A stretch of 61,986 nt of DNA, filler included, from Stramenopiles sp. TOSAG23-3 (lineage: Eukaryota), in NCBI GenBank assembly GCA_900128585.1. It is 15 parts of 15 records of this genome, joined end to end, with 100 filler letters (N's around TTAATTAATTAA, not from the genome) between each part and the next. Parts side by side here need not be neighbours in the genome. Positions count along the whole stretch, not along the records: positions 41,460 to 45,488 come from LT643981.1; 14 more parts are not named here. One strand, 5' to 3'. The notes beneath the pieces were generated by a model. The model was not told where the DNA came from, made no database searches, and was given only the letters and a program-made list of their open reading frames with translations. The position numbers and the translations under genes are program-made. Within the stretch, counting starts at the first letter, position 1. The number at the start of each line of letters is the position of its first letter. Below are positions 34,943 through 48,490 of the stretch, in pieces.

Positions 34943-35680
34943 TGCATTAGAGGGAGGGAGGGGAGAGAGGCCTCTAATCNNNNNNNNNNNNNNNNNNNNN
35001 NNNNNNNNNNNNNNNNNNNNNNNNNNNNNNNNNNNNNNNNNNNNNNNNNNNNNNNNNNNNNNNNNNNNNNNNNNNNNNNNNNNNNNTTCTTTTACATACA
35101 CATTTTTACAATCTGCAACATGTGATTGATTGATTATCAGTTTTACCCTTACGGAAGAATTAAGACTCTCATTTTAAATCAATTACAATTTCAGTTCCTA
35201 CCTCCTTAATCCTAAAAAGATGTTTTAATTTGATGTTTTAAATTTTGATTTTTTTAATTTCGTATTTTCTTTGGTTGTCAATCACTAAGGAATTATTTAT
35301 ATTCCAAAATGAGAGGTGATCTGTACGATATATATATATCTTATCATTAAATGAAAAAGTAAATGTCAATTTAAAATTACAGTGTTTGAATTTTTATGAA
35401 GAATTACGAATTTTCAGCAAAATTAGACGGGTGTCCCACTCCTTTTATTTACCAAGTTTGCCTTGCCATCAAGCATAGGTTTTGTGGTTCTTGAGAGAGT
35501 ACGTCAGAGATTTTCAACCGCTTCCGGTACAATTGTTGATAGAGCTGTAATATCGCTAGAGCACTTAGGACACTTCATTGGTCTGAAAATGTTGTAAGTT
35601 TTCCTTTAGCACCAAGAGTCTAATTCTATTGCAAGATGAAAGCATGCAAAGAGCCGACCAATTTGTGCTATGGAATCATA

Positions 35681-40642: not shown

Positions 40643-41350
40643 ATGGCTTCCGCATTTGGCGCAGGACGGCGGGCCGACCAGAACGTTCGTGCCATCAAGA
40701 AACGGCCGCTCCGGCCAGCTGGGTACACGAACCGCCCGAGCGCGGTCCTGGACGCGCGAAAAGCGTCGAACCCGTTCTCAAAGTCCGGCGCAAGAAAGAA
40801 CTCTCCCTTTGCCCAAGCCTACAGCGACGGCGGGGTGCCCTGCCGAATATGCCACGGCGGCGTCAAGCACAAGCTTCAGTGGGACGTGGAGCCCGTAGAG
40901 TTAGACTATTACCCGATCTTGATCACCTTTGCCTTTGGCCTTGCGGAGACCAAGCACCCGTACGTGTTCGTCGCGCCCGTTGGGTTCGAGCAGCTCCTCC
41001 TCGCCGACGGGGCGTACGAAAAGGTCATGCCCCTGGTCAAAGATTTGATGCGCCCGCTGCGCTTGTCCCTCGCGAGCAACGACAAGACCGTCGCCAACAA
41101 CGCCCTCAAGGCCGTGCACCTCCTCTCCAACTTGGTCGGCAACGAGCTCACCCAGTACTTGCCCATGCTCTTGGTCCCGATCAAGAGCAAATGGTTTAAA
41201 CCCAACTTTAAAGAGAAAATTACGGAACTGTTGCAATCGTTGGAAGAGCAGGGTGGGGTAGAGGCCTACAAGAAGATCAAAAAGAAAGTCCCAACGTATC
41301 ACTCCGTAGGGTCGTACAACCACGGCGGCGGCATGGGCATTGGGTTCTAG
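40643..41350 (+). CDS. PACRGL: PACRG-like protein
   Basis: GGVPCRICHGGVKHKLQW, GLAETKHPYVFVA and LEEQGG...IKKKVPTY. Confidence 0.88.
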   Translation: MASAFGAGRRADQNVRAIKKRPLRPAGYTNRPSAVLDARKASNPFSKSGARKNSPFAQAYSDGGVPCRICHGGVKHKLQWDVEPVELDYYPILITFAFGLAETKHPYVFVAPVGFEQLLLADGAYEKVMPLVKDLMRPLRLSLASNDKTVANNALKAVHLLSNLVGNELTQYLPMLLVPIKSKWFKPNFKEKITELLQSLEEQGGVEAYKKIKKKVPTYHSVGSYNHGGGMGIGF

Positions 41351-41459
41351 GGGGGGGGGNNNNNNNNNNNNNNNNNNNNNNNNNNNNNNNNNNNNNNNNN
41401 NNNTTAATTAATTAANNNNNNNNNNNNNNNNNNNNNNNNNNNNNNNNNNNNNNNNNNNN

Positions 41460-44400
41460 AAGGAGTAACTTGTCTCTGCCCCATCTCCCAATGCAATCCC
41501 TGCTAGGCCGAGAAATTTAAATGAAAACGAGTACACCCAGGCGCCGAATAATATTAGCAAGATGCTCACTACGCCCAGGCCAAAAATCAGGCCTCGTCCC
41601 AGTTTCGTGAATTCAACGCGAATGCCACCCTTCCCACCACATCGAAAGGGATGGCTGCATATTCTGCGGGTTCTTGTTTTCCAGCCTTTCTCCTCCGTGT
41701 TTTCGTCTCTAGTGTTTAAAATGGACTGAACATCGCTTCGATGAAATGCGATTATGACGTGGGTGACTATAAGCTGCATCACAGTCATGAGCAGGAAACC
41801 GAAAATTCCCCAATTGGGGAGAACAATTATGTCCGCTTGAAGAACTTCCGGGGGCAAAAACACCCATGAGTCTGGGCTGGTGATGTGGAAGCGAAACGCC
41901 ACCATCATCAAAACTAAAACAATCAAGTCGATAAGGCTCCATTTCCCTAAAATGTCCAGGCAATTGAGCAAAGTCCCCCTTTGGCCTTCTGTAATCCACC
42001 ACGGTGGTGCCATCCAGGAAAACAACAGAAGAGAAAACTTCACGTACGGCCACAAGCCAGAGAACACGGCTATCAACAAGGCGAGCGGGTACACCCCTGC
42101 CGTCCACATGTCGTGGATGCTGTTCAACAGTGAGAACGAAAACAGCGGCGGCAAAGGTACCACGTCCTTTCCCAAATGGACCGTGGCAATGACGCTGGCC
42201 CCTATACTGACATGACCCCCGAGGAGGATCAACATCCCGGAGGCTATGAAGAAGGGGATTGAATAGCGCGCCCAGGGTGGGACGGCGGAACTGCGGTACA
42301 ACGCCCGATCTCCCCCGTCGCCGTCTCGCCCACAGCACGAGCGCTTTTTGCGCAATCGTCCTGGGCAGGACTGTTCGTCGAGGTCATTCTCGCCCAACTT
42401 TTGGTACATAGACATTCTGCTGTCATCGTTTTCTTGGTCCTGGCGTCCAGGCTCCGCTGTACTGTTGACAGCGAGGTCGGTTTTCCCCCTGCAACATTTG
42501 TAAGCGGCTACAATTGCGCACGACATGAAAAAACAAAGCGATGCCAGCACATTGCACACTACCGTGACGGCGGGATAAATCCCCGTAAACTCATCGTGGC
42601 TGCCATGGCTAGAACTGTTGACCCCAGATTGAGCATTGATGCACCCTTGCGCGGACGTGTTCAACGTGTCGTTCAATACACGGTTGGCCAAACGCTCCAT
42701 GGGCCACTCCCCTTCGTCATTCTTAGCATTTCTGAGGGTATTAAGGGCAGACTGTAACATATCGTTCAATTGAATCTTTCCCACTTTGGAGCTTAAGGTC
42801 TTGGATATCTCTGGGAGGGCCTTCGAGGAGCAGCTCAGGCAGTTCAATTCGATGTATACGTCGCTCATTGCTAAAGTAAGGTTTCGGACGTCCAGCCCAT
42901 CAAGCACTTCAAAAATGCAGGATGGGTATTGGAAATCATGCAACTTGTCTGTAAGCAGCCGGTCTTCGTTGATCTGCAAGTTCATGCCGGTCCCGAGGGA
43001 CATCCCCACTGCAGTCAATCGAAGCTCAAAAATATTTCGAATGGGCGTCCCATCAATCTGCAGGTGCGAGTCCGGCGTTATTGCCAGCCCGCACTGGGTC
43101 GAAATTTTTAAGGGCTTTTGCTCCGAGCCGAGACTGATCTCATTTACAGTACTGTATGTTCCGGAGGGGTGTACCAGCTGAAACTGTTCAAATGTGTCCA
43201 GCCCGGCCACGGAGAGGTTGCTCAAATTGAATTGCATCACGCCAAAGTCAGGGTTTAAGTAATTGATGGTCAGCACATTCTCGGCAATGAGCACTTTGCC
43301 AGCTTGCTTGTCTTCGCCGTTCGCCGCGGTAGTAGGTTGCATGTGCCCCACGGTCAATAGGTCCATGACGTCGTTTATGTTCATGTCAACCAGGGAATGC
43401 ACGCCAATAAATCGGTTTAGTACGGTGTCCAACCCCTTGAACAGAAGGTTACCCGATATGTTGACGTCCTTCGAGCGTGGAGGCAACAGCTTTGATGGGG
43501 CCAGGTCGCACGAGACCGCCCTCTCCGCGCCTGCAAGCGCTATGGCCAAGTCAATGGCCTCGTTGAGGATTTTTTTTACCGGGCCGTCCAGGGCCCCGCG
43601 GACTGCTTCTGCCAGCACGGTGCCGTACAATTGATCACCAACCTCAAGCGCCATTCCAAACAGCTCGCTCATCCCCTGGTCGAGAAAGAACAGTACGGGC
43701 TTCCCCAGCACTTCCACGTCAAAGAGCGTCTGTGTTAGTTCTATTTCGTAGAACGAACTGAGGAGGCACAGCGGCTCGGCTAATTCGATCACCGACATGT
43801 TTAGAATACGATCTTGGAATATTGCGAGGGCAGCATCCAGCTGGATCAAGACGTTGCTGGCGTCGATTGACAGCGACGCGGGTGCAGTCAGAACACCCTC
43901 CGTGGTGTGCCCAATGAGCGACCCCGGGCCCAAGCTGACGGTCCCGTTCAAAACGATTTCTACGTGGTCCATTTCAATGTGTGAGGACAGGCCGTACCTG
44001 TCCAAAGGGGAAAAAATGCTAAAGTTGCTAATAGTCTCCAGGCCTTTCAAGCCGACGCTGGAAATAGTAATGTTTGTGTCGGTAATTCCATCGTCCCCTA
44101 AATGCAGCTCCAGGTTAAAGTCTGCCGACAACTGCCCGTCGTCGCTTTCCAGCTGCTTGATGATGTTTCCGGCGACGAAATGGTGGGGGTCCAAGTGGCC
44201 CCTTGCATTTAGGACTTTGTCGATCCCAGTCAAGATCGACAGCTCTGACCAGTCGACCAGCTTCTTGCGTATTTTCGGGGGCGGGGGGGGGAACCCTGAC
44301 CCGGGCGCTGGGGGTACGACGAGTTTTGATAGAGTTTTTGAAAAATTAAAGAGAAGGCTGTCCACTGGCCCGTTGACGACGTTGGGCAGCTCGGCGCACA

Positions 44401-44947
44401 CAATGTCGGACAAGGCCTTATTCAACGCGCTGGCAATGGCTTTGTGAAACAGCTCCAACAAGTCTGCTGATACCCCGCCCTTAAATCTCAGCGAGGAAAT
44501 GTCAAAGGCGCACGTGCAGTCCTTTGCCGGGTCCAGGTGCACGTGGTCGGGCACGTGTTCCGAGTTCCTCGCGATGGCGAACTTTACCCCAACGGAGGAC
44601 TTGCTCACCTTGATGTCTACGCTGCCTTTCCCGGAGGCGTGGGGCCAGTTCTTCTGCTTGTACGCCCATTCGGCCGTGCACCCAAACGAGAAATCGCCGG
44701 CGTCGAGGGAAACAATGTTTTTTTCATCTGAAAGGTTGATATTTACGATCGCAATGTCCGTACACACAATATTCGTGACAGACAGCGAAACCTGGCCGAC
44801 GACGGGGACTTTTATGGGTGGTATGGGCAGGTCTGGGATGTTAAACGTGACATTTTTTAATAATTTAGAGAGCGCCTGTCCCGGGGTCTGCGTTGCCCCT
44901 GCAGGGAAGCACGACGCCAACAGTGCAAGGAGGGAAAGTGTCCTCAT
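41460..44947 (-). CDS. Membrane protein with signal peptide, BPI/LBP (TULIP)-like repeats, a TM helix and PqiA-like domain(s) (3' partial)
   Basis: N-terminal IPDL...SVTNIVCTDI...WAYK...GKGSVDIKVS...C...ISSLRFKGG...LFHKAIASAL...VC resembles the BPI/LBP N-domain. FSLLNSIHDMWTAGVYPLALLIAVFSGLWPYVK...LGKWSLIDLIVLVLM is a PqiA signature. Likely ATG at 44947. Confidence 0.85.
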
Positions 44948-45404
44948 AAAAAACGCGCGGATGTGGAATCTCGATCCCATCCTCCCCGTTGGCAAGGAAC
45001 CCCGTCAACGTTTCTTCCGGGAGCGTAAAAGAAACGGACCGCTGCCTTGACAAGAAAGTTTTCGGGGACCAAATGAGTGAAACGAACGTCTCGTGTTCAA
45101 CAAAGGTTGGTTTGTGTCGAGTTTTGAATGGAATGAATATTGTTTGGTTTTAACTAATATTCAGAAATCACTCTTGTCTTGTCTCTCTATCTATCAGTGC
45201 TTACGTACAACTCCTCCTCTTCTTCTTTTTTTTTCTTCTTTCTTTCTTGCTTGCTGTTTCTTTTGTCGTCACATGCAACATATATTTTATTATTGTACAT
45301 TTGTATACTAGTATAGTAGCTACTAAAATATGACCACCGAATTATTATTATTTTATTATTATCATTTTTAAAAAATTATTGTATTTGTTATAATATGGTG
45401 ATGA

Positions 45405-45411
45405 GAAAGGA

Positions 45412-45447
<36 letters not shown>

Positions 45448-45488
45448 GTCGAAAGAAAGAAAGAGTCGAAAGAAAGAAAGAAAGAAAG
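45405..45488 (+). repeat. (GAAA)n microsatellite at contig end
   Basis: Tandem AAAG units, two interrupted by GAGTC. Confidence 0.95.
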
Positions 45489-45716
45489 NNNNNNNNNNNN
45501 NNNNNNNNNNNNNNNNNNNNNNNNNNNNNNNNTTAATTAATTAANNNNNNNNNNNNNNNNNNNNNNNNNNNNNNNNNNNNNNNNNNNNTGTTCTTGAACT
45601 GACACCTTCTTTTTTTCTTTAATTTTAATTACTATAAAAAATAACAGCCAAATTTTTCTTGTTTTAATTTTAATTACACTTAAATAACAACCAATTTTCT
45701 TGTTTTTAAAATAATT

Positions 45717-48278: not shown

Positions 48279-48490
48279 TTGTACTTTGCACGATTAGCTG
48301 ACAGGGGGTGGGGGTACCTCTCGGCGTGCACACACCTTTTTTTGACATTTTTTACCAACTTGTTTNNNNNNNNNNNNNNNNNNNNNNNNNNNNNNNNNNN
48401 NNNNNNNNNNNNNNNNNNNNNNNNNNNNNNNNNNNNNNNNNNNNNNNNNNNNNNNNNNNNNNNNNNNTCAGCTAATCGGGCAAAATACAA
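48279..48490. mobile_element. Putative small MITE spanning a scaffold gap, with 23-bp TIRs and TA flanks
   Basis: TA|TTGTACTTTGCACGATTAGCTGA (48279-48301) versus TCAGCTAATCGGGCAAAATACAA|TA (48468-48490), two mismatches. The interior is partly N. Confidence 0.6.

Follow-up and report, generated by a model that had tools for sequence, protein, structure and literature searches.

Introduction

LetA (YebS) and PqiA of Escherichia coli, the inner-membrane partners of LetB and PqiB (PDB 9n8w), are built from two tandem tetraspanin-like modules, each contributing four transmembrane (TM) segments together with extracytoplasmic strands. According to the available text of the LetA paper (Nature 2026; PMC13017536), lipid is taken from the bilayer via a cleft into an extracytoplasmic pocket in the C-terminal module and thence into the MCE tunnel above, the zinc ribbons of LetA are functionally important as judged by deep mutational scanning, claudins and TARPs are structural relatives of a single LetA module, and LetA-like proteins without zinc ribbons are present in parasites and marine protists. 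An association of such domains with a different class of lipid carrier was recognised earlier by Wong & Levine (2017), who in the available text described a small number of CETP/BPI proteins, from protists and amoebae, in which a PqiA domain at the C-terminus serves as the anchor, and who raised the idea that both parts bind the same lipid (PMC5507252). The present study concerns a gene that encodes a fusion of this kind on one contig (positions 41460..45488; LT643981.1) of a 61,986-nt stretch of DNA from Stramenopiles sp. TOSAG23-3 (GCA_900128585.1), the whole of which is referred to below as the window.

The available text of a bioRxiv preprint of September 2026 (10.64898/2026.09.11.750981) describes the characterisation of PfTUPA from Plasmodium falciparum, the TULIP domain of which lies in the lumen of the digestive vacuole and which is required for clearing internalised membranes, and names the class TUPALs. 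The underlying survey drew on InterPro and AlphaFold-DB entries; the forms named are 1x and 2x BPI-like, TrypTULIP, ApiTULIP and a beta-sheet extension, and for the PqiA-N region the alignment is with the C-terminal part of PqiA from E. coli, much as module 1 of the protein described here matches the C-half of LetA. The statement in a preliminary description of the window, made from the sequence alone, that no characterised function was known for such a fusion is consequently outdated.

As far as these sources describe them, the TUPALs of the '2xBPI-like' N-terminal type share with the window protein the combination in one chain of a two-module LetA/PqiA domain and extracytoplasmic TULIP/BPI-like barrels, the absence of zinc ribbons, and an occurrence in diverse protists. 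The architecture and fold of the window protein are those of the TUPAL class, the extracytoplasmic side being predicted. By comparison, PfTUPA carries a single divergent ApiTULIP domain at its C-terminus, whereas the window protein has three barrels, one of BPI N-terminal type followed by two of BPI C-terminal type (N-C-C), and a TM helix of its own that precedes the PqiA part. The proteins of Wong & Levine share both the fusion and the shared-lipid idea, but differ in that the available text (PMC5507252) gives no structure, function or barrel count for them. The fusion itself is thus not new, and the window protein is a new three-barrel N-terminal member of a described class. With a probability put at roughly 0.7, the product of this marine protist gene is a lipid transfer protein of TUPAL type, made as one chain.

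Results

The reading frame and its full-length copy

The fusion gene occupies the minus strand from an ATG at 44947 to the contig edge at 41460, a run of 1162 uninterrupted codons (P0001) from which the 3' end is missing; an alternative in-frame ATG lies 11 codons upstream of 44947. A near-identical full-length protein of 1383 amino acids (aa), P0002, is encoded on a separate 13.9 kb contig and shares the numbering of the window protein through aa 1162. The two differ at only 2 of 1162 positions (P188S and F1018S), and P0002 supplies the missing 221 residues, which complete module 2 (aa 1113-1310, 4 TM) and add a tail of ~75 aa. The 3' end, the recovery of which had been proposed in the preliminary description, was thereby obtained.

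Three TULIP barrels in the ectodomain

Of the 16 N-x-S/T sequons, 14 lie in the ectodomain, which extends over approximately aa 19-788 (~770 aa) and also contains 12 Cys, those invariant across nine relatives being C394, C480, C677, C703, C706 and C769. The earlier proposal of a signal peptide followed by about 780 aa of ectodomain was therefore sound in its second part, while the first was borne out only to the extent of a signal-like hydrophobic stretch at aa 1-18.

A first AlphaFold2 model (model 1: aa 1-830, 31-sequence alignment; mean predicted local distance difference test score (pLDDT) 76.9, predicted template-modelling score (pTM) 0.63) consisted of three blocks of long curved strands with one long helix in each. 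Foldseek comparison of this model with the PDB returned 31 matches at E <= 1e-3, of which LBP was the best (3.3e-11), followed by CETP and BPI (~1e-10 to 2e-10), at a probability of 1.0; further matches were to the three-TULIP protein OrfX2 (3.4e-7), juvenile hormone-binding protein (JHBP), Der p 7/Der f 7, Takeout and SPLUNC1, all members of the TULIP superfamily. Structural alignment with VIA-align over model residues ~21-479, corresponding to units 1 and 2, gave Z values of 14.1 for LBP, 13.2 for BPI and 11.8 for CETP, so that the long helix and curved antiparallel sheet of the TULIP fold, with two barrels in tandem, were found in units 1 and 2 by both methods.

Unit 1 taken alone superimposed on Der f 7 with Z 10.8 and a root-mean-square deviation (rmsd) of 3.1 A over 149 aa, and a search with the family profile matched residues 32-194 of human BPI (E 3e-10) as well as LBP (E 3e-7). 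The Cys of the family profile align with BPI C135 and C175, the pair that forms the conserved disulfide of the N-terminal barrel; in the window protein the corresponding residues are C144/C146 and C184. Relative to the secreted two-barrel proteins BPI, LBP and CETP (PF01273, PF02886), units 1 and 2 therefore align along their whole length, with the proline-rich linker and the C135-C175 Cys in common, whereas the window protein differs in its third barrel, membrane anchor and transporter domain, in a sub-threshold Pfam score of its own, and in a barrel orientation that departs from theirs in the model.

When unit 2 (aa 240-480) was aligned to unit 3 (aa 481-780) using hhalign, the probability was 99.5% (E 3.6e-23, 233 columns), and the paired motifs first noticed by eye (aa 293-314 and 572-593) were in register within that alignment; the repeat is therefore real rather than a chance resemblance, and unit 3 is, on this profile evidence, an internal duplicate of unit 2. 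Because unit 3 was barely covered by the VIA-align comparison of model 1, its fold was judged from a second model (model 2, described below), in which Foldseek matched it to JHBP, Der p 7 and Takeout at probabilities of 0.99-1.0, with LBP, BPI and CETP included among matches spanning 0.85-1.0 overall. Profile-profile comparison of unit 1 with units 2 and 3 was not significant (11.6% and 3.6%), so that a shared TULIP origin of unit 1 with the other two is indicated by fold alone. The ectodomain is accordingly modelled as three TULIP barrels: one of BPI-N type, one of BPI-C type, and a duplicated barrel of BPI-C type with a helical stalk. This agrees with the preliminary description, which had proposed a BPI/LBP-type first unit, two later units with a shared motif, and TULIP folds throughout.

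The membrane part as a LetA-like domain

The Pfam PqiA family PF04403 matched the window fragment at 26.8 bits (aa 939-1019) and the full-length P0002 at 42.6 bits over two stretches, against a cut-off of 23.8. By contrast, scores for the NCBIfam PqiA equivalog models fell far under their cut-offs (15.9 vs 562), and the protein is therefore not an orthologue of bacterial PqiA. Eight TM segments follow the single helix, TM0, that succeeds the ectodomain, and in model 2 (AlphaFold2, P0002 aa 480-1383, 46-sequence alignment; pLDDT 83.2, pTM 0.77, with 525 of 904 residues at >= 90) strands lie between TM1-2 and TM3-4 of each module, giving the tandem two-module pseudo-dimer of 4 TM plus an extracytoplasmic beta-sheet each that is characteristic of LetA.

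Foldseek comparison of this model yielded LetA of the E. coli LetAB complex (9n8w_A; E 2.6e-7) as the sole match at E <= 1e-3. With VIA-align, P0002 aa 892-1315 were superimposed on LetA 64-418, the alignment beginning at LetA residue 64, with Z 13.8 and an rmsd of 7.1 A over 302 of 392 residues at a sequence identity of ~12%; the next-best rows were claudins and TARPs at Z <= 8.4. The assignment of this region to PqiA/LetA, and the order TM helix, PqiA domain and second similar unit at the contig end (Table 1), thus stand as first proposed.

The two modules resemble each other at the profile level (hhalign 94%, E 1.3e-7), and module 1 matched the C-half of E. coli LetA at 92.8% (E 4e-7) as opposed to 2.9% for the N-half. 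Of the seven residues of the LetA polar network, four (S321, K328, S364 and D367) are aligned to S963, K970, S1004 and D1007 of module 1, which vary little or not at all among family members; T402 lies outside the alignment. The G-[RK]-W-S-x-x-D motif is likewise shared with LetA/PqiA, and conservation within the family is highest in the LetA-like domain. It differs from LetA in that the motif characteristic of the C-module lies in the first module; at the level of profiles, the module bearing the polar network comes first here, the order being reversed relative to LetA.

The fusion is genuine

A word-index search recovered 17 relatives among 8000 scored candidates, several of which span 97-99% of the query, and one of which (P0003) is 50% identical across 98% of it, with diatom and green-alga homologues among the relatives; Pfam matches to PqiA at E <= 0.01 were present in all 17, the gathering score being reached in 16. 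An exhaustive search of representatives of clusters at 50% identity returned 1939 clusters at E <= 1e-3, of which 1192 remained at a threshold of 1e-10 and 405 at one of 1e-30.

DNA of the contig was present in 20 of 24 runs listed, from 13 studies (12 besides the possible source study), the runs comprising marine or seawater metagenomes and six RNA-library rows. Contigs from four of those runs were aligned to 41460..45488. A 3519-nt contig from DNA run X2 spans 41460-44156, and a 2894-nt contig from RNA library X6 spans 41460-43670, each bridging the ectodomain, TM helix and PqiA domain; contigs from X2, X6 and X17 overrun the window contig end at 41460 by 822, 683 and 665 nt respectively, which leaves room for the missing 221 codons. 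No joints were seen in the four aligned runs, and no introns in those parts of the open reading frame (ORF) covered by their contigs. The RNA-library contigs cover the ORF in part, its 5' end (~44836 upward) lying outside their coverage, and the occurrence of the sequence in RNA libraries, including a polyA-selected one, fits expression without proving transcription. At 41603, 41630, 42701 and 43600 the window contig differs by single bases from contigs of other runs, and these differences, like the amino acid differences at positions 188 and 1018, have the look of polymorphism within a single species sampled at sea more than once.

Since independent DNA and RNA contigs bridge the junction without joints, the TULIP-PqiA fusion is genuine and not a misassembly, a point raised as a risk at the outset. 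That a secreted BPI-like gene had been joined to a separate PqiA gene in an assembly chimera might be suspected from a window contig that is short and ends within the gene. It is countered by the single unbroken frame of 1162 codons and by an order of three barrels plus PqiA common to 59 of 163 stored relatives (P0002 included); the copy on the separate 13.9 kb contig, the shared domain order and the bridging contigs together led to its rejection, and it now commands next to no credence.

Barrel number varies among relatives

Hidden Markov models (HMMs) of the three units were scanned against the 163 stored relatives, a set biased towards relatives of the query, and at least one barrel unit was found in 148 of them. 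Ahead of the PqiA part, the order N-C-C, that of P0002, was the commonest (59), followed by N-C (39), N-C-C-C-C (9), N-C-C-C-C-C-C (3) and N-C-C-N-C-C (3). The other 35 relatives carried C only (16), C-C (9), C-C-C-C (4) or N only (2), along with five single cases; many of these are probably N-terminally truncated fragments, retained in the count.

In most five-barrel and all three seven-barrel forms the added units are by turns of unit 2 type and of unit 3 type, from which it follows that growth of the chain is by complete unit2-unit3 pairs; the longest forms reach 2750-2920 aa. In several of the long forms (among the five- and seven-barrel relatives P0031, P0117, P0079, P0072 and P0018) a TM-like hydrophobic segment is present after every internal unit 3 as well as after the last one, and the duplicated block seems to be unit2-unit3-hydrophobic helix. 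An alternating topology would result if these internal segments were to cross the membrane.

This series does not appear in the available text of PMC5507252, PMC13017536 or the preprint, the last of which contains neither the term '3xBPI' nor any reference to three or more barrels, and the supplementary figures of the preprint may show such forms. The three-barrel count, and the 2/3/5/7 series generated by unit2-unit3 pairs, may therefore be new.

Features of the contig and of the remainder of the window

The coordinates of the features of the fusion contig are collected in Table 1. At the cytoplasmic end of the TM helix, a Cys-Cys pair (aa 818-819; 42491..42496 region) is accompanied by basic residues, and is a possible S-acylation site.

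Table 1. Features of the fusion contig, in positions of the whole window; aa numbers are those of the window protein.
Feature	Position	Strand	Basis or remarks
5' non-coding stretch	44948..45488	-	~540 nt, AT-rich; CTTT microsatellite at far end; no long ORF; partly covered by a DNA metagenome contig
Signal-peptide-like N-terminus (aa 1-18)	44894..44947	-	Translation; hydrophobic; low-pLDDT helix at aa 5-12; called without a dedicated predictor
TULIP unit 1 (aa 19-215), predicted BPI N-terminal-type barrel	44303..44893	-	Family profile match to BPI; Der f 7 fold match
Proline-rich linker between barrels 1 and 2 (aa 216-236)	44240..44302	-	Translation; no secondary structure in model
TULIP unit 2 (aa 237-480), predicted BPI C-terminal-type barrel	43508..44239	-	LBP/BPI/CETP structural alignment; long strands and 50-aa helix
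TULIP unit 3 (aa 481-780), predicted duplicate of unit 2 with helical stalk and invariant C-x-x-C	42608..43507	-	hhalign; Foldseek; invariant C677, C703, C706, C769
Transmembrane helix TM0 (aa 789-819), then basic residues and Cys pair	42491..42583	-	Hydropathy; helix at aa 792-818 (model 1), 791-829 (model 2)
Disordered, predicted cytoplasmic linker (linker 1, aa 820-890)	42278..42490	-	pLDDT < 50 at P0002 aa 831-875; 3 Cys, no C-x-x-C; occupies the place of the first zinc ribbon of the bacterial proteins
PqiA/LetA module 1 (aa 891-1075): 4 TM and extracytoplasmic strands	41723..42277	-	Pfam PqiA; hhalign to LetA C-half; structure alignment
G-K-W-S-L-I-D motif, within module 1	41927..41947	-	
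Predicted cytoplasmic inter-module linker (linker 2, aa 1076-1112), small hairpin and 2 Cys	41612..41722	-	Sequence and model 2
PqiA/LetA module 2 start (aa 1113-1162), broken off by contig end	41460..41611	-	TM at aa 1115-1147; remainder in P0002

The window consists of ~15 contigs of ~4.0-4.05 kb, ordered by descending length and joined via N44-TTAATTAATTAA-N44 spacers (for example 41360-41459 and 45489-45588); the contigs having been joined artificially, neighbouring 'genes' of the window are not genomic neighbours. The N runs at 34980-35086 and 48366-48467 are gaps within contigs as distinct from spacers, and the contig preceding that of the fusion ends in a poly-G run (41350-41359) which is probably a sequencing artefact. 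The other contigs encode ordinary eukaryotic proteins, namely PACRG, DPP3 (M49), a nucleotide-sugar transporter, a polycystin-type channel with a FYVE domain, a GT17 protein, an AFG1 ATPase, an Omp85-family protein and a WD40 protein; the gene for PACRG implies a flagellate or ciliated cell. Identity of the DPP3 protein to named relatives did not exceed 57%, and the ESM Atlas yielded PqiA clusters only, with sparse taxa. A feature at 40643..41350 (+) was noted together with the genes of these other contigs. An Rfam scan of the window gave 0 matches.

Discussion

Proposed topology and mechanism

To judge by the signal-like N-terminus, by the ectodomain with its sequons and invariant Cys, and by the basic residues that follow TM0, the barrels are predicted to lie on the extracytoplasmic side, which would correspond either to the cell exterior or to the lumen of an endolysosomal compartment or food vacuole. 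With one TM helix ahead of eight, both ends of the LetA-like domain would be cytoplasmic, as they are in bacteria. In such a topology the C-module-like module directly follows the TM helix that anchors barrel 3, so that the fused TULIP chain would sit at the place of the bacterial tunnel.

The barrels would bind lipid in hydrophobic cavities on the extracytoplasmic side and exchange it with a pocket of the LetA-like domain, most likely in module 1, where the S/K/S/D polar network is kept; the LetA-like domain would in turn shift lipid into or out of the bilayer, the fused TULIP chain substituting for the MCE tunnel (PqiB/LetB) from which it differs in both fold and covalent attachment. The suggestion that TULIP barrels may stand in place of an MCE tunnel, made from the sequence alone in the preliminary description, is supported by the present analysis, and is already in print for eukaryotic LetA-like proteins (PMC13017536) and for TUPALs (10.64898/2026.09.11.750981) in the available text of each. 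The hydrophobic conduit and the salvage of prey lipid or LPS by a phagotroph, also suggested there from the sequence, are conjectural. By analogy with PfTUPA, the favoured guess as to direction would be uptake of lipid from the lumen or exterior, either into the limiting membrane of an endolysosomal compartment or food vacuole or at the cell surface.

Several points weigh against a lipid transfer protein of this design. The BPI, LBP and CETP two-barrel superpositions were obtained at rmsd 20-23 A, and either the placement of the barrels in model 1 departs from that of BPI or it is unreliable. The profile check advocated earlier was positive for PqiA and negative for LBP_BPI_CETP, since PF01273 scored 18.3 bits on unit 1 against a cut-off of 28.8 (E 0.002), and the BPI C-terminal family (PF02886) was not among the Pfam matches listed at E <= 1. 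The PF01273 cut-off is passed by the relative P0015 at 35.0 bits, and because both the family profile and the fold searches match BPI, the homology is real despite the sub-threshold score, in a protein that nonetheless lies outside the curated Pfam family boundary. Within the membrane part, the comparison of module 2 with the LetA halves was weak and ambiguous (30.7% and 39.1% probability), and in the weaker of these alignments (30.7%) LetA K178 and D181 would pair with E1241 and Q1244. LetA carries C-x-x-C at residues 31, 51, 233 and 248 as its zinc-ribbon pairs, whereas zinc ribbons are absent from the window protein, C-x-x-C being found neither in linker 1 (C861, C871 and C872; disordered) nor in linker 2 (C1097 and C1103). 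Furthermore, given the different arrangement of PfTUPA, with its single C-terminal ApiTULIP, function can be transferred from that protein by analogy only.

Other functional readings

The lack of the zinc ribbons that LetA needs for function would equally suit a protein in which the LetA-like part had become an anchor or signal relay, and the barrels a membrane-anchored BPI/LBP-like device that binds lipopolysaccharide (LPS) or bacterial lipids at the cell surface or in the phagosome, for recognition of prey or its killing. LBP and BPI are themselves the top structural and profile matches of units 1-2, and the protein is predicted to be extracytoplasmic and is rich in sequons, which speaks for such a role. 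However, the LetA-like domain is the most conserved part, and what is conserved in it comprises the LetA polar network and motif, which argues for transport having been kept; in addition, the joining of PqiA to diverse TULIP types in many clades, as far as the available text of the preprint goes, fits a partnership in lipid transfer. A recognition or antimicrobial protein is therefore considered rather unlikely.

The resemblance of single LetA modules to claudins and TARPs (Z ~8; also noted in the available text of PMC13017536), taken with a barrel count that varies among relatives as a spacer might, invites comparison with a structural tether or adhesion protein, in which a stiff extracellular rod, borne by a membrane organiser akin to claudins and tetraspanins, would fix the distance to a cell covering or to a further membrane without any flux of lipid. 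Such a role is judged very unlikely, in that the two-module match to LetA (Z 13.8) far exceeds the matches to claudins and TARPs, the residues of the polar network are conserved, and all of the characterised TULIP families matched are lipid binders. A single-chain lipid transfer protein of TUPAL type hence remains the preferred reading.

Within the framework of lipid transfer, it may tentatively be proposed, as an idea that is possible but on balance doubtful, that the TULIP chain on its LetA-like base acts as a modular ruler, the length of the conduit being tuned to the distance between the membrane and the source or target of lipid. The barrel series would then be the eukaryotic counterpart of the 1-, 3- and 7-ring series of MCE proteins (MlaD, PqiB and LetB), and the three-barrel form would serve as a bridge as opposed to a shuttle.

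Significance

LetA/PqiA transporters have long been regarded as partners of bacterial MCE tunnels, and the eukaryotic TULIP fusions have so far had one characterised member, PfTUPA, which is essential in malaria parasites, where it serves to recycle lipids. The N-terminal multi-barrel form described here is abundant (1939 representative clusters), and the gene is widespread in the DNA of marine plankton and present in RNA libraries. The window protein and its full-length copy provide a well-modelled three-barrel example onto which the polar-network residues of LetA have been mapped. If the barrel series reflects bridging distance, the family would constitute a natural test set for the relation of conduit length to membrane gaps; and, if true, the proposed function would also point to a route of lipid uptake in the digestive or surface membranes of protists.

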